Positions 5,010 through 21,080 of a stretch of DNA of 64,000 nt are shown here, piece by piece. The notes beneath the pieces are model-generated. The model saw only the letters and a list, made by a program, of their open reading frames with translations. It was not told the DNA's origin and ran no database searches. Within the stretch, counting starts at the first letter, position 1; every line of letters begins with the position of its first letter. Source of the DNA: Planctomycetota bacterium (GTDB lineage Bacteria > Planctomycetota > Brocadiia > JAADGH01). The stretch covers positions 2,271 through 66,270 of the forward strand of contig JAADGH010000213.1 of assembly GCA_013152475.1 (NCBI GenBank), in the 5' to 3' direction. Position numbers and translations under genes: made by a program.

Positions 5010-5204
5010 TCAGCCAAGCTTTCCGTCGATCTCTCCGTCGCCGAAGAAATCGACCCAGGCGTCTTCGTCCTCGCCAAGCGACGCTACGTCACCGTCGCAG
5101 TTTGGGGCGACACAGTAGCCCTCGTTCTCCAGCAGGGCGACGAGGGCCTCCTCCGTACCATATATAGTCCCGCACTTTGGGCATTTGAGCGGGCTGGCAG
5201 ACAT
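5010..5204 (-). CDS. small Cys-knuckle (zinc-ribbon-like) protein with acidic C-terminus
   Basis: 64-aa ORF with a GGGGAA RBS 5 nt before the ATG. Has CPKC ... CVAPNC cysteine pairs and a D/E-rich tail. Confidence 0.5.
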   Translation of the reverse strand: MSASPLKCPKCGTIYGTEEALVALLENEGYCVAPNCDGDVASLGEDEDAWVDFFGDGEIDGKLG

Positions 5205-5556
5205 GACCGTTCCCCGTGTATCAAAACCTATAAACTAATAACTTTCCTATTATACCACATATCTTGGCCGAATGAGGAGAAAAAATCCTACCCGCGCCGT
5301 TTTTGGCCACGAGTCTACGCGGCGATCTGGCATTTTCTGTTGTTTTGGTGTTCCAGTAGGTGTCCCAGTGTTGTGAGAGGAAGAAATCTGAATCCGTGAG
5401 AACCGAGCGGGAATGCGGTCGTGTGATTGGCATAACCCATTGGAAAATGGTAAGATACGGGCATTAAACATATCCGATCTACCCTAACCCAACAGGTGAA
5501 TGCCATGGGCTACATTCTAAGCGCTTTAACCAAAGTGAGTTGTGATTTTCTCTGGG

Positions 5557-5614
5557 TATAATGTGCGTTGCGTTCAACCTCCACCATGATACCGACCCTT
5601 TGGTTGGGTGGAGG
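5557..5614 (+). promoter_or_regulatory. perfect TATAAT box followed by an 8-bp GC-rich hairpin that includes the Shine-Dalgarno of the downstream HTH ORF
   Basis: TATAAT at 5557-5562. CCTCCACC (5578-5585) pairs with GGTGGAGG (5607-5614). GGAGGAG lies 8-10 nt before the ATG at 5625. Confidence 0.35.
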
Positions 5615-5624
5615 AGATCTGCCC

Positions 5625-5835
5625 ATGCCCGGTTGCACCAAACTTCGCCCTGCGTCCGAAGCCGAACGGGCCGAGCTGGAACGTCTCGTTCGGAGCAATC
5701 CCGATGCGCGGGTCCTTCGTCGAGCTCAGATTGTCCGACTACGGCTTCTGGGCCACAAGCACGGGGAGATCGCCGAACTGCTCGGGCACTCGATGCCGTT
5801 GGCGGCAGTCCCTCCTTTTCCAGCGAGAGAAATGA
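5625..5835 (+). pseudogene. IS630-family-like transposase N-terminal HTH fragment (relic, no DDE domain)
   Basis: The translation LRPASEAERAELERLVRSNPDARVLRRAQIVRLRLLGHKHGEIAELLG resembles IS630/Tc1-type transposase N-termini. The reading frame decays after about 75 aa. A possible frameshifted continuation (..TRCRWRQ..) is seen in another frame. No catalytic domain follows. Confidence 0.4.
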
Positions 5836-5889
5836 CATGCACCCGACCGATCGCTCTTGGAATTAGACACCATCGAAGACGATTTTTCC

Positions 5890-5918
5890 TTGACACGCTA
5901 TGGCTCTTGTTTTACTTT
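5890..5918 (+). promoter_or_regulatory. putative promoter of the 6000-20853 operon
   Basis: TTGACA (5890-5895)-N17-TACTTT (5913-5918), about 80 nt upstream of the ATG at 6000. Confidence 0.3.
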
Positions 5919-5999
5919 ATGTAGCTCTTGCGGAGGGGGCGCGATTGGATCAGTCACAAGAGGGCGGAGGGAAATCACAGCTTCAAGCATAAGGATAGC

Positions 6000-7970
6000 A
6001 TGGGAGAGATTGACTTCCGAAAGCAGACCGGCGGAGGTGTTACGTTCCGCGCAGTCGTTCTTGGCCTCCTCTTGGTGTCCTTCCTCTCGGCCATTGTTCC
6101 TTACAGCGACTATTACCTTCACAACACACCGCTTACGGGCAACCATTTTCCTATCGGCGTCGTCTTTCTCTTTCTTTTTCTCTGTCTCGGCGTAAATACG
6201 GTTGTGCGCAACTTCTTCCGCGGCGCCGAGCTCTCCTCCGGCGAGCTGCTGACGGTGTGGTGCATGATGCTTGTCTCGGCGGGGCTTGCCTCCACGGGGC
6301 TGGCGCGGTATTTCTTTGCCATGCTCATCGGGCCGTTCTATTACGCCACGCCCCAGAACCGCTGGGCCGAGACGATCCACCGGCATATTCCAAAGGCCCT
6401 GTGCCCCTCTCAGGACCCGATCAGTCCGGTGATCTCCTATTTCTTCGAGGGCATGCCGCCCGACGCGACCATTCCGTGGTCGGCATGGCAGCGGCCGCTG
6501 ATCCTGTGGGGCATCCTGATCCTTATGCTCTACGGCCTCATGTTCTGCCTCTGCGCGATCCTCCGCAAGCAATGGGCCGAGCGCGAGCGGCTCAACTTCC
6601 CCCTGATCCAACTGCCCGTCGAGATGGCCGCCCCACCCGAACCCGGGTCGCTCATCAATTCCTTCTTCAAGAGCAAGGCCATGTGGATCGGGTTCATCAT
6701 CCCCGTGTTCCTCTATTTTCTGTCCGGGATGCACCGACTGTACTGGGGGCGATACTGGCCGCAGCCGCGCCTCTTTATCTGGCTGTGGAGCTTCTTCAAC
6801 TCCGAGCCTTGGCGCCACATGCGCCTCATGCGGCTGGGCATCTATCCGTCGATCATCGGGTTCACGTATCTCCTCACGCTTGAGGTGTCGCTCAGTTTCT
6901 GGTTCTTCTACTTCTTTATGCGCATGGAATACCTCCTCTGCGCCGTGCTCTGGCAGCCGATCTGGGGCGACTATTCCTCCCGTGCCATCCATCAGCAGGC
7001 CGGCGCGTTTCTCATGATGGCGGTCCTCCTGCTGTGGCGGGCCAGATCGCATCTCAGGGACGTGGTGGGCAAGGCCTTCAACAGCGATTACCCCGTGGAC
7101 GACTCGGAGGAGCCCCTATCCTACCGGACGGCCTTTTTCGGGCTGATCGGCCTGACCATCGGCGTGTGCGTGTGGTGCTCATACCTGGCGAACATGTCGG
7201 TCTTCTTCACCCTTGTGGCGCTTATTCTCCTTCTGACGATCCTCATGGTGCTTACTCGAGTGGTCGCGCAGGGCGGGCTGATCTTCGTCTCGCAGAATTT
7301 CCAGCCCTATGACATTATGACCACCACCTTCGGCTCGGCTACCATTGGCCCATCGACGCTGACGATTCTGGCCATTCAGAACATCGTCTTCATCCACGAC
7401 TCCCGCGAGGTCATGATGCCCAATATCATGAACTCTTTCAAGATCGGTGACAACCCCCGCATCAACCAGCGCGTCCTCTGCGCCGCCCTCTTCCTCAGCG
7501 TCATCGTCGGCATGATTGTGGCGGGGTATTTCTACCTCAAGTTGATGTACACCTACGGCGCGTCGAACCTCCAGCGGTGGGACCTGCGCCGGATATTCCT
7601 CTGGCGCTTCAACTCCCTGGTCTGGCGGATCCGAAGGCCGCGCTTCACCAACTGGCTGCTGCTGCGCTGGATGGGCTATGGCGCGGTGCTGATGGCCGGG
7701 TTATATTATATGAGCACACGGTTCTACTGGTGGCCGTTCCATCCGCTGGGTTTGCTCATGGCGAACACCTACCCGATGGAATGCTTCTGGTTTTCCATCT
7801 TTGTGGGGTGGTTCCTGAAGTCCTCGATCCTGAAGTATGGCGGGGGGCGGACCTATAAGAACATGCGCCCCTTCTTTCTCGGGTTGATCCTGGGGGAGGC
7901 GTTTATTGCGGGCTTCTGGGCCGCTTACGGGTTCCACGTGGGGCGCTGGTTGGTCAGAGTGTTGCCATAG
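6000..7970 (+). CDS. large polytopic inner-membrane protein, uncharacterised family
   Basis: ORF 5928..7970 trimmed to MGEIDFRK (AAGGA RBS). Has many hydrophobic helices throughout and no soluble domain. Confidence 0.8.
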   Translation: MGEIDFRKQTGGGVTFRAVVLGLLLVSFLSAIVPYSDYYLHNTPLTGNHFPIGVVFLFLFLCLGVNTVVRNFFRGAELSSGELLTVWCMMLVSAGLASTGLARYFFAMLIGPFYYATPQNRWAETIHRHIPKALCPSQDPISPVISYFFEGMPPDATIPWSAWQRPLILWGILILMLYGLMFCLCAILRKQWAERERLNFPLIQLPVEMAAPPEPGSLINSFFKSKAMWIGFIIPVFLYFLSGMHRLYWGRYWPQPRLFIWLWSFFNSEPWRHMRLMRLGIYPSIIGFTYLLTLEVSLSFWFFYFFMRMEYLLCAVLWQPIWGDYSSRAIHQQAGAFLMMAVLLLWRARSHLRDVVGKAFNSDYPVDDSEEPLSYRTAFFGLIGLTIGVCVWCSYLANMSVFFTLVALILLLTILMVLTRVVAQGGLIFVSQNFQPYDIMTTTFGSATIGPSTLTILAIQNIVFIHDSREVMMPNIMNSFKIGDNPRINQRVLCAALFLSVIVGMIVAGYFYLKLMYTYGASNLQRWDLRRIFLWRFNSLVWRIRRPRFTNWLLLRWMGYGAVLMAGLYYMSTRFYWWPFHPLGLLMANTYPMECFWFSIFVGWFLKSSILKYGGGRTYKNMRPFFLGLILGEAFIAGFWAAYGFHVGRWLVRVLP

Positions 7971-7991
7971 AGAGGGGAAAAGGAAGGGATA

Positions 7992-10900
7992 ATGCGTAAC
8001 GTCCGGATTGCATGTCACATCCTCCTGCTCCTTGCCCTCCCTGCTGCGGGGGCCTCCGCGCAGGGCGCAGGGGACGACATCGGCAGCCGCGCGGCGCTCA
8101 AGCGCACCATCGAATACCTCTCTTCCATCAACAGCCGCGTCACCGGCTATGCCGGCTGCGACGAGGCGGCTGCGTATGTGGAGATGCGCTTCCGCGAGTT
8201 GGGCCTCAGCAATATTGCGAGCGAGGAGTTCAAGCTGGCTGTGCCCGTGGACAGGGGGGCGCTCTTGACCGTCGGGAAGGGAAAAAACGCCAAAGAAATC
8301 CTCATCCACAGCCTGTGGCCCAACATGGTTCGCACCTCCAAGCTCCCGCCCACGGGGATCACGGGCTGCCTTATATACGGCCGCGGGGGCTACATGCTGG
8401 ACTTCAATGGGAAGGATGTCAAGGACAGCATCGTCTTGATGGAATTCAGCTCATCCACTCGCTGGCTGAACGCCGCACAGTTGGGCGCAAAGGCGATCAT
8501 CTTTATCGAACCACCTGGGGATATTCTGTTCCGCACCGATGCGGAGGAAAAATTCTTCGAGATTCCACTGCCCATGCCCCGCTTTTGGATCGCAAAGGCC
8601 GATCTCGCGGCGCTCGTGAAGGCGTTGGGCGTGAAGGCCCCACCGGTCGAGAACCGCCGCAAGCTCGAAATCAGCTTGCGCGAGGTCTTGTCCAAGAAGC
8701 GGCACTCCGTTCGGATCAAGGCCGACATGGCCTGGGAGATGCGCACGGCGCGCAACATCATCGCCACCATTCCCGGCACCGACCGCGAGCTTCGCAAGGA
8801 TACGATTATCCTCGAGGCCTACTATGATTCCATCTCGATCGTCCCCGGCCTGGCGCCGGGCGCTGAATCGACCTGTGGCCTGGCGATGATGCTCGAGCTG
8901 GCGCGATGGGCCGTCAAGCACCCCCCCCGGCGAACCCTCAAATTCGTTGCGGCGCCGGGGCATTTCGAGGCCCTGGCGGGCATCCGAGAGTATTCGAAGA
9001 AGCACTACTACACCCGGTACGAGCCGGAAGAGTCCTCAGAGCAGGAGGCCCGCGAAGAAGAAAAGGCCGAGCTGGAACAGGCCGAGCGCGAGGGGGTGCG
9101 AAAGCCCGGCCACCTCATGATCTCCCTCGATCTGTCCAGCGGGGAGAACCAGCTGGCTCTTTTCTACAAAGGGCATTTCTACGACCAATGGGCCGCTTGG
9201 GGCGAAGGACAGGAGGGGCGGCACCAGCGCCAGTTCATCCGCCTCGCCGAGCGAATCATGACGTACTACGAGGACCTCGACTCCGCCGAGTTTGACTCCA
9301 CACTCCTCAACGGCGTCGTGCCGAAACGGGATCGAGACTGGCAATCGATGGTCCCAGGCAAGATTGCCCTCGACAGCGAGGTGGTATGTCTCGCAGGCCG
9401 GCAGGCCGTGGCGTTTGTTACGGCCAACGACTCCCGGAGTTATGTAGACACGCCGCTGGATGTCGTCGCGAAGGTTCGATTTGACAATCTCGAGGCCCAG
9501 GCGAAGCTCTTGATCGCCCTGTTTGGGAAGATCTTCAACGACCCGGAGCTCCCGCTCACCGATAAACTGCACCAGGGATGGGTGGGCGACTCCTTCGGCA
9601 AGGTGCGCGAGGACCTCCTGCTGGCATACCTTCCCGAGACGGCCATCCCCGGCGCCGTCGTCGGCGTCCTGCTCACCAACGAAACGAAACCGCTGTTCGG
9701 CGTCCGGCCGCGGGCCTACACCATCAGCGAGTCGCATGGATTGTTCGAGTTCTTCGGCCTGGACCGGAACGCGCGGCCCTACTGGCGGAATGTTGTGGCC
9801 TTCAAACTGGACCCCAAGGACGGCAGCATCTCGTGGGCCTTGAAGCCGCGAAGCGAAAACCGTCAGTTCGGCCTGCATCCGATCTGGTGGCGGAGGCGGA
9901 ATAAGGACTGGACGAAACGGGCCATCGACATCCGCCTGCCCGTGTTTCAGTGCACCTCATGGGTGATCTACGACCTGATCGACCAACTGGACCTGCAAAG
10001 CCTGGGGAAGCTGACGGTGCTGGACGCGAGCACAAACGCGAAGCCGCGCAAGGCCGTCTACTTCCTGGGGGAGGTGGGGGAGGGCACGTCCTTTTCCGAA
10101 CCGTGCGCCGTGGTATTTACCGAGCCGGACACGCACATCAAGCTGACCATGGAGCCGCGCGGCCGTGGCATCCAGCAACAGCGCCTTACCCTCCTGAATG
10201 TTCCCCCCGGCATCGTGACGGTCGTCAATGTGCGGACCAACAAGGAACTGGCCATATTTCCGGGGCACAAGGGCGAGGTGGACGCGGTGGCCTTCGCCCC
10301 CGACGGGGTGACTGTCGCGTCGGGCGGCGAGTCGGGGCTCTGCCGCATATGGCCCCTGGCCGTTCACAAGGAGGGGGAGACCGTGAAGGGGGAGGTGCTT
10401 CGGGGACATACGGCCCGGATCAACGACCTGGATTTTTCGCCCGACGGCCGATTCCTGGTGTCGGCGTCGGACGATCACACGTGCCGCGTCTGGGACTGGA
10501 AACGCAAGGAAGAGATCGGGCGGTTCGAGCAGCACGGGGCGCCGGTGCTGTCTGCTCGGTTCTCCCCGGACGGGCGGCGCGTGGTTTCGGGCAGCGCCGA
10601 CGGGAAGGTGTGGATCTGGCCGATTCGCCCTGACAAGAAGGCCAAGATCGAACCGAAGAGCGTTCTCCTTGCCGGGCACACAGGCGGGGTGAACGCGGTC
10701 GCGTTTTCTCCGGACGGAACGCGGGTGGTTACCGGTTCCGACGACATGACGTGTCGCGTCTGGGACGCGGCCACCGCAAAGGTCCTTTGTACGTTTGCGG
10801 GGCACCGCGGCGCGGTGAACGCCGTCGCGTTCTCGCCGGATGGGAAGCGTGTGGCGTCAGGGTCGGACGATACCACATGCCGCGTCTGGAACGCAGAGAA

Positions 10901-13859
10901 CGGGACCGGGCAACTGGTCCTTGAGGGGCACACGGGCGACATCCTGACCCTTCTCTTTTCGCGGGACGGGAAGGAAGTCGTCACGGCAGCAGATGACGGG
11001 ACCAGCCGCCGGTTCGACGCCGCTACGGGCAAGGAAATCCAGCGGCAGGACGTACGGGCCTGGGACGTGGCGCGGCTGGGCTTGCGAAAGGGGGACCCGA
11101 TCCTTGCCATGATGGACCCCTCTCGGCGCAAAGAGAGCCAGGAGGGCGTCGGTTTCGCGCCGGTACCCGGCAAGTCCGAGAATTTTATCTACAACACCTC
11201 ATACCGCGTGGCCCGGGATATGTGGGGGCTGGATGCCTTCCGGATCGAGAAGCTGCGCGAGACGGGCATCGCAAACAAGCGTGTGGATGAGCTGCACTCC
11301 CTGGCCGGGCGGTGTCTCCACAAGGCGAAGAAGCATTGGCGACAAAGGAACTACGACAAATTCCTCGATGCGGTCCGATCGTCCTGGGCCTTCGAGTCGG
11401 GGGCCTACCCCCATGTCCACCGGACGGCGAATGACGTGCTCATCGGGATTATGTTCTACTTCGCCGTGCTTATGCCCTTTGTTTTCTTCTGTGAGCGGCT
11501 GCTCATCGCCGCCGCCGACATCCGCCGACAGCTCATGTGGCTGGGGATCATCTTTCTGATCGTCTACCTCATCCTGTATGGGGTGCATCCGGCCCTCCGG
11601 CTGTCGAGCACGCCGATTATCATTATCGACGGGTTCTTCATGATCGCCTTGGGTCTGCTGGTGATCTTCTATATCCTGAACAAGTTTAATCAACAGATGG
11701 AAGACGCCCGGGCCAAGTCCACGTTTGTCCACCGGACCGATGTGGCCCGGGGCTCTGCGGCGGCGGCAGCCTTTCTGCTGGGCATCTCGAACATGCGGAA
11801 GCGAAAGGTCCGCACGGCCCTGACGTGCATTACCTTGATCTTGCTCACGTTTTCGCTTCTTTCGCTCGCGTCCTTCGAGACCGAGCTGCGCTCCTACAAG
11901 GTGGCCACAAAGTACAACAAACCCTACGAGGGAGTGCTCCTTCGGCGGCTCAACTGGGCGCCCATCGAGGAGCACGCCTATTATACACTTTTGGAACACT
12001 TCCGCGACGCCGGCGGGCTGTGCTGCCTTCGGTCGTGGATTTCTCCGGAACGGGGCCAGAACCTTGCTCTGGATGTGACCAACGTGGAGAACCCGCGGTG
12101 GGGGGCCTATGCGGCCAGGGGCGTTCTGGGGCTGGATCCGCGCGAGCCAGAACTGACCGGGCTGGACAGACACCATCTCAAAGGCGCACGATGGTTTACC
12201 GGGAAAGAGGAACGGTATCCCTTCGTCTGCCTGCTGCCAAAACATATGGCTGAGGAAATCGGAATCGAACTGAAGCCGAACCAGCCGCCGCCGCAGGTGC
12301 GACTGCTTGGCAACGACCTGGATGTGATCGGAATCTTCGACGACTCCATCGGCATGCTCGACCACATTCGTCTCGAACACTTTCGCAAGCCTCCTGAAGG
12401 CGAGGATTTGGACGCCTGCAAGAAGGGCGAGTGGTATGTCTGCCCGTACTGTGGGGAGCAGTTCGCCTCCAAGACAGGTTTCTACGGCACCACGGACCTT
12501 GACAGCGAGCCGCTCACACCGGTGGACTTTGCAGAGATGCAGGAGCGTCACGAGGAAGAGGAGTCTCTGGACCTGCAGGAGGAGGACGAGAGCGGGACCA
12601 AGAGCACGAAGAGCGAGCTGCTGCCGGACCCCGATGACTACTACCACCAGGATCCGGGCAACGTGGTGATCGTGCCCAACGACCTCGCCATCAAGATGGG
12701 CGCGACGATTCGCTCGATCGGTGTGAAGCTGCAGGGCCGGAAGGTAAAGCAGATCGTCGAGAAGTTCACGCAGCGGACGAATCTGCTGCTCTTCACCGGT
12801 GTCCCCGTTTCGCCGGAGGAGGAGGCGCGGGGGTCGAAGGGCGTTTACCTCTACCGGTCGAGAGGGCAGCTCTCGGTGAAGGGCATTGCGAACCTGCTTG
12901 TGCCGATGGCGATTGCCGGCCTGATCGTCTTCAACACCATGCTTGGCTCGGTGTATGAGCGAATGAAGGAGATCAGCATCTACGCCTCGGTGGGTCTGGC
13001 GCCTATGCACATCTCCGCCCTCTTTCTCGCGGAGTCGACGGTGTATGCCATCATCGGCGCTGTGGTGGGGTATCTGATCGGGCAGATTGGGGCGCGGTTC
13101 CTCACGCTGAATTTCCCGAACATCGGGCTGAACCTGAACTATTCCTCGACGGCCGCGGTCTGGGCCACGATGATGGTGATCGGGATCGTCATTCTGTCCA
13201 CGGCCTATCCGGCGCGCAAGGCGGCGCAATTGTCCGTGCCCGATGAGACGCGGAAGATGAAGCTGCCGAAGCCGGAAGGGGACATATGGAAATTCGTGTT
13301 CCCCTTCACCGTCAGGCACACGGAGACGATTGCCGTGAGCATGTTCCTCCACGACTACTTCACCTCCCACGACGAGGACGCACTGGAGGGGTTCACTGCG
13401 GACGAAGTGGGTCTGGCCGAGAAGGAAGCGGGGGACAGGACGGTGTACATCCTGACGAGCAAGGTATGGGTGCAGCCGCTTGACATGGGCATCAGCCAGT
13501 GGGTGAAGATCACGACCTTCCCCGATCCCACCGATGAACAGCTTTACCTGATGGAGTTCGAAATCCACCGAGAGAGCGGCGAGGTGGAGGCATGGGGGCG
13601 GATGAACGTGGGGTTCTTGCGGTTGGTGCGGAAGCAGCTCCTCATCTGGCGGCTGGTCGAGTCCGACTACAAGAAACGGCTCGACATGCGCGGACGCGCC
13701 GTTCTGGCCGGAGAGCCCGTGCCCCCGCCGTATGAGGATGAGCCGGAGGCCGAGGAGACCGAAACGGCCTCGGAATCCGCGCAGGGGGGAGAGGATGGCG
13801 ACGACGAGGCGCTCGATCCCGAAGAGTTCAGGAGTGAAGGAAGCGGAACGACTACGTGA
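7992..13859 (+). CDS. 1955-aa fusion protein: signal peptide, degenerate PA/M28 peptidase-like domain, WD40 propeller, 3 TM helices and an FtsX/MacB-type permease with a large extracytoplasmic loop and acidic tail
   Basis: AAGGAAGGG RBS. Signal peptide ILLLLALPAAGASAQG. M28-like block LEAYYDSISIVPGLAPGAESTCGLAMMLELAR. At least six WD40 units (GH..FSPDG....DD.TCRVWD). FtsX TM1 RKRKVRTALTCITLILLTFSLL. FtsX C-terminal helices LVPMAIAGLIVFNTMLGSVYERMKEISIYASVGL...AYPARKAA. Confidence 0.9.
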   Translation: MRNVRIACHILLLLALPAAGASAQGAGDDIGSRAALKRTIEYLSSINSRVTGYAGCDEAAAYVEMRFRELGLSNIASEEFKLAVPVDRGALLTVGKGKNAKEILIHSLWPNMVRTSKLPPTGITGCLIYGRGGYMLDFNGKDVKDSIVLMEFSSSTRWLNAAQLGAKAIIFIEPPGDILFRTDAEEKFFEIPLPMPRFWIAKADLAALVKALGVKAPPVENRRKLEISLREVLSKKRHSVRIKADMAWEMRTARNIIATIPGTDRELRKDTIILEAYYDSISIVPGLAPGAESTCGLAMMLELARWAVKHPPRRTLKFVAAPGHFEALAGIREYSKKHYYTRYEPEESSEQEAREEEKAELEQAEREGVRKPGHLMISLDLSSGENQLALFYKGHFYDQWAAWGEGQEGRHQRQFIRLAERIMTYYEDLDSAEFDSTLLNGVVPKRDRDWQSMVPGKIALDSEVVCLAGRQAVAFVTANDSRSYVDTPLDVVAKVRFDNLEAQAKLLIALFGKIFNDPELPLTDKLHQGWVGDSFGKVREDLLLAYLPETAIPGAVVGVLLTNETKPLFGVRPRAYTISESHGLFEFFGLDRNARPYWRNVVAFKLDPKDGSISWALKPRSENRQFGLHPIWWRRRNKDWTKRAIDIRLPVFQCTSWVIYDLIDQLDLQSLGKLTVLDASTNAKPRKAVYFLGEVGEGTSFSEPCAVVFTEPDTHIKLTMEPRGRGIQQQRLTLLNVPPGIVTVVNVRTNKELAIFPGHKGEVDAVAFAPDGVTVASGGESGLCRIWPLAVHKEGETVKGEVLRGHTARINDLDFSPDGRFLVSASDDHTCRVWDWKRKEEIGRFEQHGAPVLSARFSPDGRRVVSGSADGKVWIWPIRPDKKAKIEPKSVLLAGHTGGVNAVAFSPDGTRVVTGSDDMTCRVWDAATAKVLCTFAGHRGAVNAVAFSPDGKRVASGSDDTTCRVWNAENGTGQLVLEGHTGDILTLLFSRDGKEVVTAADDGTSRRFDAATGKEIQRQDVRAWDVARLGLRKGDPILAMMDPSRRKESQEGVGFAPVPGKSENFIYNTSYRVARDMWGLDAFRIEKLRETGIANKRVDELHSLAGRCLHKAKKHWRQRNYDKFLDAVRSSWAFESGAYPHVHRTANDVLIGIMFYFAVLMPFVFFCERLLIAAADIRRQLMWLGIIFLIVYLILYGVHPALRLSSTPIIIIDGFFMIALGLLVIFYILNKFNQQMEDARAKSTFVHRTDVARGSAAAAAFLLGISNMRKRKVRTALTCITLILLTFSLLSLASFETELRSYKVATKYNKPYEGVLLRRLNWAPIEEHAYYTLLEHFRDAGGLCCLRSWISPERGQNLALDVTNVENPRWGAYAARGVLGLDPREPELTGLDRHHLKGARWFTGKEERYPFVCLLPKHMAEEIGIELKPNQPPPQVRLLGNDLDVIGIFDDSIGMLDHIRLEHFRKPPEGEDLDACKKGEWYVCPYCGEQFASKTGFYGTTDLDSEPLTPVDFAEMQERHEEEESLDLQEEDESGTKSTKSELLPDPDDYYHQDPGNVVIVPNDLAIKMGATIRSIGVKLQGRKVKQIVEKFTQRTNLLLFTGVPVSPEEEARGSKGVYLYRSRGQLSVKGIANLLVPMAIAGLIVFNTMLGSVYERMKEISIYASVGLAPMHISALFLAESTVYAIIGAVVGYLIGQIGARFLTLNFPNIGLNLNYSSTAAVWATMMVIGIVILSTAYPARKAAQLSVPDETRKMKLPKPEGDIWKFVFPFTVRHTETIAVSMFLHDYFTSHDEDALEGFTADEVGLAEKEAGDRTVYILTSKVWVQPLDMGISQWVKITTFPDPTDEQLYLMEFEIHRESGEVEAWGRMNVGFLRLVRKQLLIWRLVESDYKKRLDMRGRAVLAGEPVPPPYEDEPEAEETETASESAQGGEDGDDEALDPEEFRSEGSGTTT
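10263..11024 (+). repeat. intragenic tandem ~126-nt (42-aa) WD40-coding repeats
   Basis: Six consecutive units with recurring nucleotide strings, e.g. gacga...acgtg(c/t)cgcgtctgg(g/a)ac, encoding DD.TCRVW(D/N). Confidence 0.85.
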
Positions 13860-15811: not shown

Positions 15812-15818
15812 GGCGGCG

Positions 15819-17477
15819 ATGAAAGCAAGCACAAAGAGGTTCCTGATTGCGTTCGGCTATCTCGCCACGCTGGCGTGGATCGTCCCCGCGTTCATGCACA
15901 TCGTGTATCAGTCTGTGGAACAGCACCACATCTTCGCCATGCTCCGAACCGTCCGGTACAATCAAGACGAACCGGCGATCGGCGAGGCCGAGAAGGGCCT
16001 CAGCGAGTTCGGCTTGGAGGGCCTCATCTATGTCATTCAGGAATTGAAACAAGATGAGGAGCGTGACCGGCGAATCAAACTGACCAATGTGTTGGAGCGA
16101 TTCCTGACGGGCGATTCGGACCGCGGCCGCTGGGGATGGGGCGAGAATCACGCCCTGCGTCAGCTTCTCGATACCTGGCCGAAAACACCCGGGCGAAGGA
16201 TGGCCGAGCTGAACATGGAGCAGATGAAGGAGATCCTGTTACACAGGAAACCGGGGGAACTCAAGCCGCACGAACGGCGGCAGCTCCTGAACTTCGCAAT
16301 TGAGTATGCCCTGATCACCTTGCGGTGGGACATTGACGAGAAGACCCAGGTCTTTCGGAACCGAGGGGAGCGGCTTCGGTTCAGCGAGTTTTTGGCGCTT
16401 GTGCGCAGCGAGCAGCTCCGAATGCAATTCCAGGTGACGGAGGCGAAGCCCGAAGTCGAGCTCAGCGGCGATCAGATGAAGCGCGCGGAGGACTTCGCCA
16501 AGGATTGGCTGGACAAGGAGGCGGGGCTGAGTAACAAGCTTGGACAATCCGAAGAGGCCGATCTCGCCTGGAAACTCCAGGGCTTCCTCGGCGGAGCCCC
16601 CGTTGCCTTCGTCCCCGAAGAGTGCGACAAGATGATCCGGATACTGGAGGACCAGCGGGCGAAGGAGGCGATGCTTTCCCCCAAGCTGTTGCCTGCGGCA
16701 TACGCCTCCTTGCAGCAAAAACTCCGCATGTTTTCGGACGGGGCGGCGGTGCGCTTTCCGGATGAGGACATGAAAGACGTCTGCACGAGGCTGGAGAAGT
16801 TCAAGGATGACTACATCAGCTACGCCGTCGAGATGAAGTTCAAAAAAACCACGGAAGGCCACTTTCTCAAACTGAAAGACGCAGGCGTCAATCTGTTCGA
16901 CATCCGCAGGGACGAGGTGCCCGTTGTCCTGAAGATCATCCACGAATGCCGGCGGGAGTATGCCTACGCGCGGGTCCAGATGGCCCGCACGGCGCGGCGG
17001 ATCGTTCTCGACCTGACGGGGCGGCGGGTTCGGTTTCAGACCCTTGTGAGAGACCTGAGCCCGGACCTGGGAATTTTCGAACATATCAAAAAGGCATGGA
17101 AGGCCAAGAACGACGAGATCGTCATGCTCGATCTCATCGACCTGCTGCAGGACGATGACTTCGGCGTGCGAGTGAACATCTCCGATGCGCTCGTCGCCAT
17201 CGGAAATCCCGCCGTCTATTACCTGGTCGAACAACTGAAGAAGGAGCGGGTCAACTCCACGGCTGTCGTCCCCACGCGGGACAAGAGCCGGGCCGAGCGG
17301 GAAAAAGAGCTCAACGCCAAGAACACCCAGGCGCGCAAGGCGGTGGCCATGATCCTGGGGCGAATCGGATCGAAGGAAGCGGAGTTTCAACTCCAGCTGA
17401 TGACTCGAGACCCCGTCATTGGCGCAACCTGCCACAAGGCCCTCGAACGGCTGCGCAGGCAGAAAGCGAGGAAATGA
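15819..17477 (+). CDS. N-terminally anchored alpha-helical protein with C-terminal HEAT/PBS-lyase-like repeats
   Basis: TM helix FLIAFGYLATLAWIVPAFMHIVY. C-terminal LLQDDDFGVRVNISDALVAIGNPAVYYLV and ARKAVAMILGRIGSKEA repeats. The start lies 7 nt after the upstream stop. Confidence 0.78.
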   Translation: MKASTKRFLIAFGYLATLAWIVPAFMHIVYQSVEQHHIFAMLRTVRYNQDEPAIGEAEKGLSEFGLEGLIYVIQELKQDEERDRRIKLTNVLERFLTGDSDRGRWGWGENHALRQLLDTWPKTPGRRMAELNMEQMKEILLHRKPGELKPHERRQLLNFAIEYALITLRWDIDEKTQVFRNRGERLRFSEFLALVRSEQLRMQFQVTEAKPEVELSGDQMKRAEDFAKDWLDKEAGLSNKLGQSEEADLAWKLQGFLGGAPVAFVPEECDKMIRILEDQRAKEAMLSPKLLPAAYASLQQKLRMFSDGAAVRFPDEDMKDVCTRLEKFKDDYISYAVEMKFKKTTEGHFLKLKDAGVNLFDIRRDEVPVVLKIIHECRREYAYARVQMARTARRIVLDLTGRRVRFQTLVRDLSPDLGIFEHIKKAWKAKNDEIVMLDLIDLLQDDDFGVRVNISDALVAIGNPAVYYLVEQLKKERVNSTAVVPTRDKSRAEREKELNAKNTQARKAVAMILGRIGSKEAEFQLQLMTRDPVIGATCHKALERLRRQKARK

Positions 17478-18268
17478 TGGGGGCGCGCATCTTCAGGGTC
17501 CTGTTGGCGGCGGCCGTCATTTCCATTTTTGCTTCCGTGGCCATCGGGACGTATCTGCGCGGCAAACAGGCGTGTTTTGTGGTGACCCTTTCCCCCGAGG
17601 GCGAGCCCGCAGAGGGCGTCATCCAGGCGGTGGTCAAGGCGCTTTCCCGCCGGACCGCCCAGTATGGCAAGGACTTCGGGGTTGTTCGGAGCACGATCTC
17701 TGCGGAGGAAGACGGTCCCATCACGATGAAGATCTGGGCGGAGGGTGAAATCGATGGGTTTCTGCGCTGTCTTACGCAGACGGGGGAGATGGAGTTTCGC
17801 CTCGTGAAGGGAAGGGGGAAGGATCAAAAGCCTGATGCCGAGCACGAGCTGGTCTCATGGCGCCAGGAGTACTATAGCATTCGGGAACTCGGCCAGAAGG
17901 TCGTGGAGGTGATGCCGTTCCTCGTCAGAAAGAAGCCGGAACATCGGGTGCGGTCCTTTGCGTCCGTATCGTGCCGGACGGAAGGGCTGGGGGGCAACCC
18001 CGTCATTACACTCCAGCTCCATCCCGAGGACGCCCGCGCCCTGAATCAGGTCCGTCGGGCGAACACGGGGAAGGAGATGGCTGTGGTGATCGACGGGGCC
18101 GTCCTGGTCTCCGCGGTGGTCGCCGGTTCGGTGGAGACGGACCGGATCGAGATTCGCGGCATCCGCGGCGTGATAGAGGCCCGTCGTGTCGCCGCCATGC
18201 TGGAAATCGGCGCGTTGCCGGTGAAACTCACGGTTACGAAGGTTGAGAAGGTCAAATCAGCGACATGA
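17474..18268 (+). CDS. membrane-anchored SecD P1-head-like domain protein (no SecDF transmembrane core)
   Basis: ATGA overlap with the upstream gene. TM helix FRVLLAAAVISIFASVAIGTYL. GEMEFRLV and GGNPVITLQL..DARALNQVRRANTGKEMAVVIDGAVLVSAVVAGSVETDRIEIRG.....EARRVAAMLEIGALPVKL match the SecD periplasmic head pattern. Confidence 0.72.
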   Translation: MMGARIFRVLLAAAVISIFASVAIGTYLRGKQACFVVTLSPEGEPAEGVIQAVVKALSRRTAQYGKDFGVVRSTISAEEDGPITMKIWAEGEIDGFLRCLTQTGEMEFRLVKGRGKDQKPDAEHELVSWRQEYYSIRELGQKVVEVMPFLVRKKPEHRVRSFASVSCRTEGLGGNPVITLQLHPEDARALNQVRRANTGKEMAVVIDGAVLVSAVVAGSVETDRIEIRGIRGVIEARRVAAMLEIGALPVKLTVTKVEKVKSAT

Positions 18269-20853
18269 ACGATTTCGTCCGAAAATATCTCGTCATTGCC
18301 CTGGTTATGGCGTTTGCCGCGTGCAGCGTCGGGTACGGGATTTGGGCCGCCCTGAACACCAGAGAAGCCGGACTGAAGGAGGATGCGGACAAACTGGCCG
18401 CCCAGGACGAAAGCGTTCGGAAGGCGGCGCGGGAGCGGCTGCTGAACGCCGGCATCCGTTCGATCAATCCCCTGCTTCGGGCGGTCAAATTGGGCGACCT
18501 CGATCTTCGCATCGCCGCGACTGAACTGCTGGGCGAGGTGGGAAGGCGTGACCAGGAACGCCTCGTGGACGCGAACATTGAGAAAGTGGTGAAGACCCTG
18601 GCCGAGGAAATTGCCAAGGAATCCCCCAGCGGAGGCTTTGTGATCGTGTCGCCCAGCCATGAAATGCGGGTGCGCGTGGCGCGGGCGCTGGGGCAGTACT
18701 CCTCCGAGGCGAGCGTGGAGCTGCTCCTTGTCCTGCTCGACGACAAGGAACAAGATGTCCGTCTTGCAGCGCGCGACTCGCTTGTCAGCGCCGGGATCCG
18801 CGGCTCGCGTGTGCTGGCGCGGCGCTTGGCGGACAAAAAGCGGGGGAAGAACCCGCTCCTGGCGAATGCGGTGGATGCCCTCGTTCAGAACATCGTCAAG
18901 GATGTGCTGGACAAGAACGCCTACGGGGATGTTCGCATGCGTGCGGCCCGCGCGCTTCGCGACCTCGGGGGCTCGCGCATCGAAAATGCCAAGGGGATGG
19001 TGGAGCTGATGCTCAACGAGGACGGGGAACTGCGGCTGCGCAAGGTGGCGGCCGACGTAGTGCCCGACATCGCCCCGGACCGGTTGAGGCCGCTCGCGCC
19101 CGAGCTGAAAAAGGGCCTGGAGAAGGATGAGGAAGGCGCGATCTCGATCAAGAACGGGACCATCGCCCTCGGTGTGGCCAAGAGCCTTGCGCGGATTGGT
19201 GAGCCGGAGGGGATGGAGTACGTCATCGAGTGCCTGGAAAACGGCGATGCCATGGTCCGCCTGTCGGCCGCGGAGGCATTGAATGAGCTCGGCGTCAAGG
19301 CAAAGAAGGAGATCATCAAGAACCTGGACAATCCGGCCGCCATGGTTCGCGGGCCGGTGTTGCGCGTGCTTCCTGATGTGGAAGCTCGGCCGGAGGCGGA
19401 GAAGGAGTTGATGGAGGGCCTGGACGACACCGACGGCGACGTCCGTACGGCGGCCGCCATCGGTCTGGGACGGATGGGCGATGACGATGCCATTCCCAAG
19501 CTCATCTCGCGCCTCGATGACCGCCGCTCGCGGGTCCGGCACTATGCCGAGTGGGCCGTTCAGGACATGGGGCCGGCCGCAAAGCCTTACCTGGAGGCCA
19601 CCCTGGCCTCTCGCACAGACTGGCCCTGCGAGAGCTTCGTGGCCGTTGTCTCGGACATGGTGATTGATGCCTTCAAGCGCCGGGGGCTTGCCACGCGGAA
19701 GGATGCGGTGGATGAGGCGATCCTGGAGGAGCTGGAGTTCCGGCGTATGAATCTGCCCACGCCGTGGGCGGTTCGTGTCGTTGTGAAAGGGGAGAACGGA
19801 AAGGACCTGGCACCCCTCATCCTGGATGTGCGCGAGGTGTTTGTGTTTCTCACCACCCTCTCGCGGATGACCGGCGTGCCGCAGGAGCGTTTGCTGTTCA
19901 TGGGGCGGGATGTGGTGGAATGCCTGGAACGCCGCGGAATTCGGTTTCAGATGTTCGACCAGCTTGATCCCTCACTGAAAAAGGGTCCCAAGAACGTCGT
20001 GCCGCTGCAATACAGCTCCTTCTACATGATCGCGGGGATGCTGGGGATCCTTGGGGACAAGGGGTCCGTGCCTGCCCTTCTGAATGCGCTGGAGTCCGGC
20101 GACCTCGACCTGCTGTCTCCGGCGGCGTGGGCGATCGGCATGATTGCCGACAGAACGGCGGGCCCATTGCCTGAGGAGGAGAAGATCGTCGAAAAATTTA
20201 TGGATCTGGCGCTGAACAGCAAGCCCGGAGCGAATGACCCGACCGCGGTAAAGACGGCCCACATGCTGGTTCGTGAAAAATCCGTCGAGGCGCTCGGAAA
20301 AATTGCCGATCCGAAAGCGAAACCTACCTTGCAGAATATCCTCGTCTGCGACGACCAGGGCCGCGTCCGGACCGCCGCCAGCATTGCCATCGCAAAGATT
20401 GATGGCGGCGAACGACGCATTTTGTTTGACCAGTACGTGGACATCCTTGACCACCATGAAGACCAAAGCGTCCGCACCGCCGCGACGAAGAAGATCGGCG
20501 AGCTCGGCAGCTTTGAGGCCAGGAATCTACTGCTCGGACTGATCCGCAAGGAAAAGGAATATGCCCCCGTGCTGGACGCGGCTGAGGCCGCCCTCAAGAC
20601 CCTGACCGGCAAGGACTACAGCAAGGAAGTCACTGCGAAACGTCTTGATGTCCCCAAGGAAGAGGAAAAAACTGAGGAGTCGAAGAAAGCCGAGGAAACA
20701 AAAAAAACCAAAGACTTGAACGCCCCCGTCGCATCCACTCCCAAGGCATCCAAATCCGTGCCGCCCAAACCGGCCGGGAAGCCCAAGGGGAAAGCGATCC
20801 CACCGAAGGGGTCTTCCAAGAAATCGAACCAACCTGCTGCACCCGGGCCGTAA
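18265..20853 (+). CDS. N-terminally anchored HEAT-repeat protein with Lys/Pro-rich basic C-terminal tail
   Basis: ATGA overlap. TM helix YLVIALVMAFAACSVGYGIWAAL. Many HEAT-like units (D..VR.AA..ALG.IG). The last ~70 aa form a K/P/E low-complexity region. Confidence 0.85.
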   Translation: MNDFVRKYLVIALVMAFAACSVGYGIWAALNTREAGLKEDADKLAAQDESVRKAARERLLNAGIRSINPLLRAVKLGDLDLRIAATELLGEVGRRDQERLVDANIEKVVKTLAEEIAKESPSGGFVIVSPSHEMRVRVARALGQYSSEASVELLLVLLDDKEQDVRLAARDSLVSAGIRGSRVLARRLADKKRGKNPLLANAVDALVQNIVKDVLDKNAYGDVRMRAARALRDLGGSRIENAKGMVELMLNEDGELRLRKVAADVVPDIAPDRLRPLAPELKKGLEKDEEGAISIKNGTIALGVAKSLARIGEPEGMEYVIECLENGDAMVRLSAAEALNELGVKAKKEIIKNLDNPAAMVRGPVLRVLPDVEARPEAEKELMEGLDDTDGDVRTAAAIGLGRMGDDDAIPKLISRLDDRRSRVRHYAEWAVQDMGPAAKPYLEATLASRTDWPCESFVAVVSDMVIDAFKRRGLATRKDAVDEAILEELEFRRMNLPTPWAVRVVVKGENGKDLAPLILDVREVFVFLTTLSRMTGVPQERLLFMGRDVVECLERRGIRFQMFDQLDPSLKKGPKNVVPLQYSSFYMIAGMLGILGDKGSVPALLNALESGDLDLLSPAAWAIGMIADRTAGPLPEEEKIVEKFMDLALNSKPGANDPTAVKTAHMLVREKSVEALGKIADPKAKPTLQNILVCDDQGRVRTAASIAIAKIDGGERRILFDQYVDILDHHEDQSVRTAATKKIGELGSFEARNLLLGLIRKEKEYAPVLDAAEAALKTLTGKDYSKEVTAKRLDVPKEEEKTEESKKAEETKKTKDLNAPVASTPKASKSVPPKPAGKPKGKAIPPKGSSKKSNQPAAPGP

Positions 20854-20858: not shown

Positions 20859-20887
20859 TTGACACCCAAGAGCAAAGCGATTAGAAT
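20859..20887 (+). promoter_or_regulatory. near-consensus sigma70-type promoter upstream of purA
   Basis: TTGACA (20859-20864)-N17-TAGAAT (20882-20887), immediately after the HEAT gene stop. Confidence 0.5.
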
Positions 20888-21080
20888 GCATACTTGCAGT
20901 GTGTGTACGCACATGCGCAGAGCGGAGTTTAAAACTCATTTGTACCAGCGTTTGCTTCATGTCAACACATCCAGTTTGTCCTCATAGTCCCGGCGTCCCT
21001 CCTGTGACGCGCCGGAACTGGGGACGCCCGTCCCGATGTCAGATGAAACGACCCGTATGATTGTCGATAGGGAGCGACAG

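Follow-up and report, generated by a model that had tools for sequence, protein, structure and literature searches.

The six-gene membrane-protein unit in the 64-kb window (the whole stretch of 64,000 nucleotides analysed here, from a Planctomycetota bacterium) proved to be a Planctomycetota-specific elaboration of a widespread and uncharacterised module. What is conserved is smaller than the unit itself: its second and third genes (g2 and g3), often joined by the first (g1), are present across many bacterial phyla. g2 encodes the hallmark protein of the system and g3 a partner genetically locked to it, and the WD40 insert of g2, together with g4, g5 and g6, constitutes a set of Planctomycetota-specific add-ons.

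Among 60 informative loci, i.e. related loci with enough flank, g2 immediately precedes g3 in 42, covering at least 10 phyla, and the pair is carried by Planctomycetota, Armatimonadota, Abditibacterium, Gemmatimonadota, Latescibacterota, WS1, Desulfobacterota, Elusimicrobiota, Omnitrophota and Desantisbacteria. All g2-containing loci have g3 either adjacent or split from g2 only by g1, with a spacing of at most 179 nt except where g1 sits between, and look-ups starting from g2 returned an adjoining g3-type gene in five of five cases. g1 was found in 26 of the 60 loci, each time adjoining g2 or g3. The same linkage ranking emerged from unbiased ORF clustering; linkage was far above chance only for the g2–g3 pair (± g1), and the six genes together did not co-occur beyond chance. 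Counting against the reading proposed below, solitary g3 paralogs occupy 18 of the 60 loci and form separate clades. The g2 family comprises 1,213 clusters at 50% identity (E ≤ 1e-30), and a full-text literature search on DUF6785, DUF6784, PF20581 and 'FtsX-like permease' combined with M28 returned no paper on the module. The complete unit is common only to the window and one close relative, a Planctomycetota MAG (MAG129) with the identical six genes in identical order. An earlier note on this DNA had proposed an undescribed envelope system that combines, among other parts, two transporter-like proteins with a mechanotransmission module of MacB/FtsX type. That the genes make up an uncharacterised, syntenic and envelope-associated system with this core stands, but the six-gene extent does not, with only g2–g3 (± g1) keeping their order beyond the closest relative.

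The six co-directional genes, all on the + strand, are present as that note had delimited them. They encode a 656-aa polytopic membrane protein with DUF6785 and DUF6784 (g1, 6000..7970), a 1955-aa giant type VII ABC permease of the MacB/LolCE/FtsX fold (g2, 7992..13859), a 651-aa OPT/YSL-fold secondary transporter (g3, 13856..15811), a 552-aa helical protein with an N-terminal anchor and a weak resemblance to HEAT repeats (g4, 15819..17477), a 264-aa protein with one N-terminal TM segment and a periplasmic domain like SecD P1 (base and head) (g5, 17474..18268), and an 862-aa HEAT/ARM-repeat protein, also anchored at its N-terminus, whose basic tail is rich in Lys and Pro (g6, 18265..20853). 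The five junctions, in order 21 nt, −4 (GTGA), 7 nt, −4 (ATGA) and −4 (ATGA), were likewise as first read, and terminator-like sites within the unit are rarer than in shuffled sequence. A hydropathy scan bore out the membrane association of all six products: g1 and g3 are rich in TM segments, g2 combines about seven of them with a signal peptide, and g4, g5 and g6 each have one hydrophobic stretch, at the N-terminus. Profile searches upheld the domain calls (WD40, FtsX and, weakly, PA and M28 in g2, the SecD head in g5, HEAT in g6 and weakly in g4). Upstream of g1 the GC content falls to 0.54 at 4500–6000, the lower-GC region noted before. Downstream, the near-consensus promoter-like site for purA (20859..20887, + strand; TTGACA, 17 nt, TAGAAT; 11 of 12 matches), also seen earlier, marks the boundary of the unit, and purA itself follows at 21036–22358 (Pfam E 2.8e-178). 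The envelope-precursor genes uppS and cdsA adjoin the unit in the window and in locus L001.

The accessory genes are confined to few lineages. g4 (HEAT_2, E 1e-6) is limited to Planctomycetota, and an HMM of its relatives placed homologs directly 3' of g3 in five of the Brocadiaceae/Planctomycetota loci (E 1e-15 to 5e-5). g5 matches SecDF_P1_head (PF22599, E 1.2e-14) and positions 31–238 of TIGR01129 secD (E 5e-17), an alignment that spans SecD TM1 and the P1 base and head; unlike SecDF, it lacks the 12-TM proton-conducting membrane domain and consists of an anchored P1 domain on its own, seen in only a few Planctomycetota (homologs at L001, L007 and L014 only). The most lineage-specific member is g6 (HEAT_2, E 4e-41), present only in the window and L001; at L007 an oppositely oriented gene of glycogen-debranching type sits in its place, and both g6 and the WD40 insert are missing even from relatives with 60–63% identity.

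The architecture of g2 (all coordinates on the + strand) is composite. A probably cleavable signal peptide, judging by an ASA|QG cleavage-type motif, occupies aa 1–24 (7992..8063; hydrophobic segment aa 4–22) and is followed by a periplasmic PA/M28 aminopeptidase-like head (aa ~30–730; 8079..10181; Pfam M28 E 5e-6, PA E 4e-4), whose best matches among PDB sequences included the PA-aminopeptidase 2ek8 (3.4e-7) and YwaD (6e-4). Family alignments revealed that the first Zn-ligand His is replaced by Tyr or Phe and the Glu-Glu pair by His324 and a variable residue, and the whole family is devoid of the canonical M28 catalytic residues. The earlier note saw no intact catalytic site, but the site has not decayed at random: an alternative set of Asp, His and Arg residues (D279, H324, D480, R482, D490) is conserved without exception, which suggests a defined, still functional pocket. 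Nicalin, Nicastrin and the transferrin receptor are inactive M28/PA ectodomains that serve as receptors in membrane complexes, and g2 resembles them in retaining the fold with an altered zinc site and a membrane-complex tether; they are, however, eukaryotic and single-pass, and the likeness, with a marginal match of the head to Nicalin (E 0.11), is one of fold family that shows no specific relationship. A WD40 β-propeller insert follows (aa ~735–1047; 10194..11132; Pfam WD40 E 3.4e-64 in six stretches, about seven repeats by domain call), which is missing from the 63%-identical homolog P0121 and from all loci but L001.

In the C-terminal half of g2, a helical stalk with three extra TM helices (aa ~1048–1240; 11133..11711) is conserved family-wide: tblastn with this segment ('g2mid') matched every locus holding that portion of a g2-type gene, an AF2 model of aa 1031–1955 (pLDDT 77.9) places helices there at model residues 36–211, and the region is collinear with positions 17–207 of the PADLOC model PDLC01991. 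The FtsX-type module (aa ~1258–1750; 11763..13241), supported by Pfam FtsX (E 6e-14), AF2 and Foldseek, runs from an elbow helix through TM1, a ~330-aa periplasmic domain, TM2, the coupling helix (VYERMKEISIYASVGLAPMH) and TM3 to TM4, and some homologs match MacB_PCD (PF12704). With the C-terminal half as query, Foldseek returned LolE, LolC, MacB, Spr0695 and HrtB (E 1e-8 to 1e-4, prob 1.0) and, more weakly, BceB (prob 0.69) and FtsX; equivalog scores are far under the cut-off for LolC/LolE (25.7 vs 473) and negligible for FtsX (19 vs 255). The cytoplasmic C-terminal domain (aa ~1765–1906; 13284..13709; AF2 topology β-α-β4-α2) is kept in every locus holding the 3' end of a g2-type gene and found no match in Pfam; Foldseek matches to START, PYL and Bet v 1 (E 0.03–0.1, prob 0.8–0.96) tentatively make it a START/Bet v 1-like helix-grip domain.

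Set against the type VII ABC systems (the MacB superfamily: MacAB-TolC, LolCDE, FtsEX-EnvC, HrtBA, BceAB and especially YbbAP-TesA), g2 shares the 4-TM FtsX fold with a large TM1–TM2 periplasmic domain, elbow and coupling helix, and its orthologous clusters encode a cognate ATPase of LolD/MacB/FtsE type. As in YbbAP-TesA and FtsEX, a mechanotransducer is paired with a periplasmic hydrolase-type module; in g2, however, this module is fused in cis and devoid of canonical catalytic residues, and three TM helices, the helical stalk and the conserved cytoplasmic C-terminal domain are added. The system differs further in that any partner permease it has is a minimal FtsX of 220 aa, all but devoid of a periplasmic domain, in that MFP, TolC, LolA and EnvC partners are absent, in that the locus in the window's lineage lacks an ATPase, and in the obligate linkage of g2 to OPT/YSL-fold proteins, which to our knowledge is unreported for any characterised type VII system.

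The assignment of g3 derives from its predicted structure (AF2 pLDDT 82, pTM 0.82), for which the sole real Foldseek matches were barley Yellow Stripe 1 (HvYS1; 7wst and 7wsr, E 4e-11, TM 0.61–0.69). The fold agrees with this reference of the OPT/YSL family (TC 2.A.67) over ~670 columns, with similar length, a TM-rich architecture and many invariant charged residues, but sequence identity is just 13–14% and g3 stays under the Pfam OPT threshold, which one of 15 family members exceeds; its homologs are annotated as 'peptide transporter' or OPT. g1 belongs to PF20581 (DUF6785, E 5.9e-153) and PF20580 (DUF6784, E 1.6e-31). Comparison of the g1 and g3 families by hhalign (87.8% probability, E 3.3e-6, 394 collinear columns, including a common ERLxFPL motif) identifies g1, at the level of sequence profiles, as a remote paralog of g3 and would therefore place it in the OPT/YSL superfamily as well, more distantly than g3. 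Two ~650-aa transporter-like proteins had been recognised earlier, and this is borne out with a superfamily now attached; since g3 has an OPT/YSL fold, the accompanying statement that nothing matches a known family was too strong. We know of no OPT member that cooperates with an ABC-type partner. OPT proteins are proton symporters of oligopeptides or metal chelates, and genome context suggests that the prokaryotic members often transport peptides (PMC3061005; PMC9691689); prokaryotic OPTs belong to the YSL subdivision, and the characterised members are all proton-coupled importers (PMC3061005).

No protein with a Walker-A motif and ABC signature, and no small FtsX gene, is encoded across the 64-kb window, nor was either gene found within 10 kb of the Planctomycetota and Abditibacterium loci. 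The absence of an NTPase noted earlier is not intrinsic to the system: in other phyla, orthologous clusters carry an ABC ATPase of LolD/MacB/DevA/FtsE type (25 of the 60 loci), with high scores in the LolD and DevA models, and a small FtsX partner with 4 TM helices (22 of the 60). The coupling and elbow helices of g2 are invariant in loci with and without the ATPase alike; because the coupling helix is retained in a window lacking the enzyme, the cognate ATPase is likely encoded in trans, elsewhere in the genome.

We propose, at a probability of roughly 45%, that the g2 module performs ATP-driven periplasmic capture of a peptide-like ligand and hands it to OPT-type importers. By analogy with other type VII ABC systems, ATP binding and hydrolysis in the cytoplasm, by an ATPase most likely encoded elsewhere, would move the periplasmic domains, with the coupling helix and then the stalk formed by TM1 and TM2 relaying the motion. 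The M28-like head, in which the canonical Glu-Glu pair and the first zinc-ligand His are missing, would not work as a classical aminopeptidase but would receive or gate a peptide-like ligand, one whose N-terminus is free. The captured ligand would pass to the proton symporters g3 and g1, which may heterodimerise as suggested by dimeric HvYS1, and be imported; the WD40 propeller, the helical/HEAT protein g4, the HEAT protein g6 and g5, whose SecD-P1-like head would bind polypeptides, would be periplasm-facing, membrane-anchored accessory scaffolds gained in the window's lineage. In favour are the M28/PA head, oligopeptide transport in the OPT family (PMC3061005; PMC9691689), a PqqD-type peptide chaperone at 13 of the 60 loci, the SecD-P1-like domain in the window's lineage and the precedent of YbbAP-TesA, in which a periplasmic hydrolase acts alongside a type VII ABC transporter (PMC12646458). 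On the other side, the ATPase and small FtsX are missing from the window and from the 10-kb surroundings of the Planctomycetota and Abditibacterium loci, the sub-threshold Pfam score of g3 weakens the OPT assignment, the M28-like pocket may bind a non-peptide ligand, and HvYS1, the sole solved OPT relative, carries a metal chelate.

A lipid or glycolipid substrate is what the START-like domain and the Desulfobacterota clusters, tightly packed operons that include a histidine phosphatase and glycosyltransferases of GT4/GT1 and GT28 (MurG/MGT-like) type, point toward, and they bring in a fairly improbable alternative, an extractor or exporter of hydrophobic envelope molecules after LolCDE, YbbAP-TesA, HrtBA and DevBCA. 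Here the FtsX permease would extract its substrate (a lipid, a glycolipid or a compound linked to a lipid) from the outer leaflet of the cytoplasmic membrane and offer it to the hydrolase-like head; flipping or recycling of the head group would fall to the OPT-like proteins, and binding of the lipid precursor to the START-like domain. LolE, LolC, MacB and HrtB as closest structural neighbours, the LolD- and DevA-like scores of the ATPase and the YbbAP-TesA precedent (PMC12646458) fit this reading. Yet the glycosyltransferase linkage was encountered solely at Desulfobacterota-type loci and not in Planctomycetota, Armatimonadota, WOR-3 and Elusimicrobiota, the START-like assignment is weak (E 0.03–0.1), the LolC/LolE equivalog score is far too low, the module lacks a membrane-fusion protein, a LolA-like carrier and a TolC-like partner, and characterised OPT members all import (PMC3061005).

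The FtsX fold and the hydrolase-like domain fused to it in cis also recall FtsEX systems, described as signal transmitters that activate periplasmic hydrolases. A corresponding role in cell-wall or envelope remodelling, in which ATP-driven motion toggles the M28-like head and the OPT-like proteins recycle released (muro)peptides, is improbable: the head lacks canonical catalytic residues family-wide, the FtsX equivalog score is negligible, division and peptidoglycan genes do not recur in neighbourhoods that differ completely from phylum to phylum, and the one adjacency in its favour, uppS and cdsA, is confined to the window and its close relative. Less probable again is the earlier note's own proposal of a self-contained, operon-specific, NTPase-independent six-protein machine for envelope-spanning capture or insertion. 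The tight or overlapping spacing, six membrane-associated products, a window without NTPase and the shared order in MAG129 agree with it, but the synteny data largely refute it: conservation beyond the closest relative is limited to g2–g3 (± g1), close relatives dispense with g6 and the WD40 insert, orthologous clusters encode an ABC ATPase, the coupling helix is invariant, and the annotated genes of the window and related loci include no outer-membrane or membrane-fusion component.

RiPP-like export and maturation, with a PqqD-type chaperone delivering a peptide whose N-terminus the M28-like head trims after export, is very unlikely even though the cluster is accompanied at 13–14 of the 60 loci by genes of PqqD-like (RRE) type and for a conserved cytoplasmic protein of ~318 aa that is rich in Cys, and type VII ABC systems include bacteriocin exporters (cf. 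the NCBIfam matches of the cluster ATPase), since both companions are missing from the window and most phyla, precursor-peptide and maturase genes were not seen, the catalytic residues for trimming are gone and OPT proteins are importers. Equally unlikely is a ligand-gated membrane effector in defence or signalling, with the C-terminal domain as a divergent CARF-type nucleotide sensor. g2 and its homologs do match PDLC01991, 'CARF_m8--CARF_LolE_TM' (E 1.7e-49 to 1.6e-59), strongly and collinearly from the stalk through the three TM helices and the FtsX region to past TM4, and the match of the Elusimicrobiota homolog reaches ~100 residues into the C-terminal domain; the C-terminal domain of the window's g2, however, does not match the model's CARF part, its topology and Foldseek neighbours are not Rossmann- or CARF-like, the 64-kb window holds no CRISPR repeat family, no nucleotide cyclase occurs among the annotated neighbours of related loci, and these neighbourhoods consist of housekeeping or metabolic genes without defence context. 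A second PADLOC candidate family, 'CARF_m8--CARF_Beta-galactosidase_LolE_TM', differs from g2 in its β-galactosidase-like rather than M28-like head; because this ~1,800-aa model bears another enzyme-like head, it suggests that giant FtsX/LolE-type permeases with interchangeable heads form a broader class.

What is new here is that a giant FtsX-type permease (g2) is invariably paired with an OPT/YSL-fold protein (g3), and that the permease bears a fused pseudo-aminopeptidase head. When 185,579 species genomes were scanned with the g3 alignment, at least 596 were found to carry a relative, and the best 80 loci were taken for analysis. With the addition of loci fetched by exact-protein look-up, these represent Planctomycetota (including Brocadiaceae), Armatimonadota, the cultured Abditibacterium utsteinense, Gemmatimonadota, Latescibacterota, WS1, Desulfobacterota (including the cultured Desulfogranum marinum), Omnitrophota, Desantisbacteria and Elusimicrobiota. 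Counts refer to those 60 loci, out of these best 80 of at least 596, in which 7 kb or more of sequence precedes g3. A g2-type gene lies directly upstream of g3 in 42 of the 60, and other recurrent neighbours are g1 (26), an ABC ATPase of the LolD/MacB/DevA/FtsE type (25), a minimal FtsX of 220 aa (22), a Cys-rich protein of ~318 aa, here p318 (14), and a PqqD-like protein (13); g4, g5 and g6 recur in a single locus, that of a close relative. The ranking of neighbours was unchanged by annotation-free ORF clustering. Full clusters most often read small FtsX, ATPase, G2, G1, G3, and in some of them p318 and PqqD come next. The distance between G2 and G3 never exceeds 179 nt except where G1 stands between them. 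Starting from G2 homologs, a G3-type neighbour was found in five of five loci, among them a WOR-3 locus and a 3,053-aa G2 variant. Solitary g3 paralogs occupy 18 of the 60 loci and fall in separate clades. Those of Latescibacterota and Gemmatimonadota (L016, L017, L022-L028) have a different conserved neighbourhood, which includes genes for a signal-peptide protein of ~173 aa (upstream) and for a LexA-like repressor and an aldo-keto reductase (downstream). Exact translational coupling was rejected as a conserved feature; the 4-nt g2-g3 overlap recurs in just three loci, though adjacency is universal.

In the window, the six co-directional genes g1 to g6 (6000-7970, 7992-13859, 13856-15811, 15819-17477, 17474-18268 and 18265-20853, all on the forward strand) are joined as the earlier note had read them, by a 21-nt gap, a 4-nt overlap (GTGA), a 7-nt gap and two further 4-nt overlaps (ATGA in both). 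The claim that every product is membrane-associated was borne out by hydropathy, which indicated that g1 and g3 are polytopic, that g2 has a signal peptide and about seven TM helices, and that g4-g6 are each anchored by a single hydrophobic segment at the N-terminus. Within the unit, terminator-like sites are rarer than in shuffled sequence, and the promoter proposed to precede purA corresponds to an 11/12 promoter-like site at 20859-20887. While these observations stand, their interpretation survives only in part: the six genes are not a conserved unit, the real one being limited to g2-g3, with or without g1, and much more widely distributed than had been proposed; the system is ATPase-linked in other phyla; and we found no supporting evidence that the products form a machine crossing the whole envelope. 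No Pfam family of HlyD/MacA membrane-fusion proteins or of outer-membrane ducts occurs in the six products or in the gene tables of the related loci.

Analysis of g2 indicated, from the N-terminus, a signal peptide, a PA/M28-like region, a WD40 propeller (Pfam E 3e-64), a helical stalk with three TM helices, an FtsX module (Pfam FtsX E 6e-14) and a C-terminal domain of ~200 aa. Full-length searches against the PDB were swamped by WD40 matches, and the protein was therefore searched domain by domain. Pfam, AlphaFold2 and Foldseek agree on a four-TM FtsX fold with an extracytoplasmic domain between TM1 and TM2; the model of residues 1031-1955 (pLDDT 77.9) matches LolE, LolC, MacB, Spr0695 and HrtB over 520-555 aligned columns (prob 1.0, E 1.5e-8 to 1e-4) and, more weakly, BceB (prob 0.69) and FtsX. 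Scores are far below the NCBIfam equivalog cut-offs for LolC (25.7 vs 473), FtsX (19 vs 255) and MacB (32 vs 966). Type VII permeases dock their ATPase through a cytoplasmic coupling helix and an N-terminal elbow helix. In g2, the coupling helix between TM2 and TM3 has an invariant core, ER..EI....GLAP.H (E1656, R1657, E1660, I1661, G1668-P1671 and H1673), and its segment LGISNMRKRKVRTALT is highly conserved outside that core; R1271, R1274 and T1278 are invariant in the elbow helix. At 50% identity (E<=1e-30), the G2 family falls into 1,213 clusters, and its members range from ~1,450 to more than 3,000 aa, which indicates that the periplasmic part is highly expandable. In L090 (3152-14974), the 3,053-aa variant carries added Big_5 domains and is followed by an 858-aa G3-type protein. 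The WD40 propeller is itself an insertion (residues ~735-1047) that is absent from a 63%-identical homolog. At window positions 12417-12455 (g2 aa 1476-1488), a low-confidence loop in the periplasmic domain of the FtsX module contains a Cys-x7-Cys-Pro-x-Cys motif, CKKGEWYVCPYCG, to which only marginal zinc-finger Pfam matches were obtained. The 63%-identical homolog keeps the CPxC pair and has Arg in place of the first Cys, and the motif is not family-wide.

The head of g2 resembles an M28 peptidase with a PA insert (PF04389 E 5e-6, PF02225 E 4e-4), and its matches in the PDB are the PA-aminopeptidase 2ek8 (E 3.4e-7), YwaD and, marginally, Nicalin. When 44 and 29 family members drawn from many phyla were aligned, the predicted set of canonical M28 zinc ligands (His, Asp, Glu, Asp/Glu, His) and catalytic Glu appears incomplete. 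Tyr or Phe takes the place of the first ligand His in 43 of the 44 sequences, such that H-x-D reads [YF][YF]D; the bridging Asp is Glu or Asp; the catalytic/ligand Glu-Glu pair is replaced by an invariant His324 and a variable residue; and in the final D-H motif D480 is followed by Ser or another residue. D279, D480, R482 and D490 are invariant. The alignments show that this putative site is a conserved variant and not the product of random decay, which argues against a canonical co-catalytic zinc aminopeptidase and for a pocket still under selection.

The absence of an NTPase from the unit, as originally proposed, is not shared by the orthologous loci of other phyla, an ABC ATPase being encoded in 25 of the 60. 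No protein of the window carries both a Walker A motif and an ABC signature. Neither an ABC ATPase nor the small FtsX is found in the 64-kb window or within 10 kb in the Planctomycetota or Abditibacterium loci, and the P-loop matches among real window genes are limited to a probable FtsH-like protein and PhoH. The elbow helix and the coupling helix (VYERxxEI..Y.S.GLAP.H) show the same invariance whether or not the locus has an ATPase, from which we infer that an ATPase encoded elsewhere may energise the system. The small FtsX partner (220-240 aa) has at least 7,582 clusters at 90% identity (E<=1e-15), a family much larger than G2, and it probably serves other systems too. In the top 120 matches of a search with it, those with an organism name, a minority, all belong to Armatimonadota, WS1 and other non-Planctomycetota.

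The partners of g2 belong to a different superfamily. No Pfam hit was obtained for g3 itself, which does not reach the PF03169 gathering threshold; one of 15 family members matches PF03169 (E 2.8e-8), some homologs carry a precomputed PF03169 match, and homologs are annotated as 'peptide transporter' or OPT. The AlphaFold2 model (pLDDT 82, pTM 0.82) matched only barley Yellow Stripe 1 in Foldseek (7wst and 7wsr, E 4e-11, prob 1.0, TM 0.61-0.69), the next match having a probability of 0.2. By sequence, the g3 and g1 family profiles returned nothing or noise from the PDB, and the fold search was needed. The other partner, g1, is a DUF6785 protein (510 bits against a cut-off of 25, E 6e-153) with a DUF6784 match (109 bits against 26.4, E 1.6e-31). 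The two family profiles align with 87.8% probability (E 3e-6) over 394 collinear columns that include a shared ERLxFPL motif, a value that was 43% with crude locus-derived alignments, and this profile match indicates that g1 and g3 are diverged paralogs of the OPT superfamily within one operon. Yellow Stripe 1 (HvYS1) is a proton-coupled symporter of the OPT family and forms dimers (PMC9691689). Characterised OPT members import oligopeptides or metal chelates; the prokaryotic ones, apparently mostly peptide transporters as judged by genome context, were without biochemical characterisation as of a 2011 review (PMC3061005). Our search returned no later work on their biochemistry.

Type VII ABC systems (Lol, FtsEX, MacAB, Bce and YbbAP) hold a central place in envelope biology and serve as targets for antibiotics, and to our knowledge every newly understood member has revealed another use of mechanotransmission. 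Since all parts of the module fall in known superfamilies, we regard it as a variant of these systems and not as a categorically new one. No substrate passes across the membrane through type VII systems such as FtsEX-EnvC, LolCDE, MacAB and YbbAP-TesA (PMC12646458), in which ATP moves periplasmic domains. The pairing within the module suggests a primary/secondary hybrid transport mechanism. In the most far-reaching reading, to which we give a probability of about 0.3, g2-g3(-g1) could be a previously unrecognised hybrid machine that physically joins OPT/YSL transporters to a type VII mechanotransducer bearing a pseudo-aminopeptidase receptor head; capture or gating in the periplasm, driven by ATP, would feed a proton-driven carrier. 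In our tentative main reading, the g2 head would capture or gate a peptide-like ligand at the expense of ATP, and the captured ligand would be handed over to the OPT-type importers. This route is favoured by the peptide-flavoured nature of the parts, namely the M28/PA head, the OPT-type proton symporters, the PqqD-type peptide chaperones that accompany the module in some phyla and the SecD-P1-like polypeptide-binding domain in the lineage of the window.

The main rival to peptide capture and hand-over is that the module extracts or exports a hydrophobic or glycolipid molecule. The structural neighbours of g2 are Lol-, Hrt- and YbbAP-like, its last ~140 residues bear a weak resemblance to helix-grip domains of the START/Bet v 1 type (prob 0.8-0.96, E 0.03-0.1), and the linkage to glycosyltransferases in Desulfobacterota is a hint that the substrate there may be glycosylated or lipid-linked. 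We consider it less likely that g2 controls a hydrolase in the manner of FtsEX, or that the module exports RiPPs.

A CARF-type gated effector is likewise less likely. Residues 1091-1779 of g2 and homologs in L002, L004 and L072 give a strong collinear match (E down to 1.6e-59) to the PADLOC model PDLC01991, 'CARF_m8--CARF_LolE_TM', which in the window's g2 covers the TM and stalk part only; the modelled C-terminal domain of g2 is not Rossmann-like, and no CRISPR repeat family occurs in the window. Anti-phage defence was rejected as a main reading, its sole basis being this TM-region match to a CARF-labelled model. As g2 also matches, more weakly, a 1,791-position model with a beta-galactosidase-like head, the PADLOC matches suggest that giant LolE/FtsX-type permeases may form a broader class in which the periplasmic head is interchangeable.

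If the hybrid machine is real, it would bring to at least 10 bacterial phyla a novel principle for the traffic of nutrients or envelope precursors and provide the first functional context for prokaryotic OPTs and DUF6785, on both of which the pairing with an OPT/YSL-fold protein would offer a functional handle. The family is large (~1,200 clusters at 50% identity, with the partner gene in at least 596 species genomes), occurs in many poorly studied phyla and has no literature that we could find: our search returned no paper that mentions DUF6785, DUF6784 or PF20581 or that pairs 'FtsX-like permease' with M28, and nothing relevant on FtsX, M28 and the OPT family together. The cultured carriers Abditibacterium utsteinense LMG 29911 and Desulfogranum marinum DSM 2058 open the hypothesis to direct testing.

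The remaining products of the window's unit are lineage-specific. An anchored helical protein with weak HEAT similarity, g4 has relatives after g3 in five Brocadiaceae/Planctomycetota loci (HMM E 1e-15 to 5e-5). The 264-aa g5 consists of a single N-terminal TM helix and a SecD P1 base-and-head domain (PF22599 E 1.2e-14) with a second hydrophobic stretch inside it; it lacks the 6+6 TM RND-like membrane domain of SecDF (score 62 against a cut-off of 244), and its relatives among the compared loci are confined to L001, L007 and L014. An anchored HEAT-repeat protein with a basic Lys/Pro tail, g6 is found among these loci only in the window and in Planctomycetota MAG129. Other lineages have their own accessories: GT4 and GT28 glycosyltransferases, a histidine phosphatase, STAS and anti-sigma proteins, p318 and PqqD in Desulfobacterota, prepilin-like proteins in Armatimonadota, and a TPR protein in the WOR-3 and L090 loci. 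In L088 (2864-16700) and L089 (939-17054), both of the Desulfobacterota type, the module stands at the distal end of a longer operon whose genes are tightly packed in the order GT4/GT1, histidine phosphatase, GT28_C (MurG/MGT-like), a 266-271-aa protein, small FtsX, ATPase, G2, G1, G3. On the Elusimicrobiota contig L002 (2749-14125), the whole cluster (small FtsX, DUF6785, G2, G3, p318, PqqD, ATPase) is lodged between trpG and trpD of a tryptophan operon, and a second DUF6785 gene lies 4 kb downstream.

Nucleotide synteny with MAG129, the closest relative (~79% identity), runs from 38 nt upstream of g1 through purA, uppS, cdsA, phoH and beyond; its abrupt start at 5962 marks a rearrangement breakpoint just upstream of g1. 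An Rfam scan of the window returned no RNA elements. The interval 4500-5962 has a lower GC content (0.54) and short ORFs without Pfam match, including an HTH-looking fragment at 5627-5866. At 55-2657 on the reverse strand, two adjacent or overlapping ORFs (515 and 437 aa) match spore-photoproduct-lyase-like radical SAM families (PF20903 E 3e-18 and 1e-13) and lie upstream of an IclR regulator at 2599-3420.
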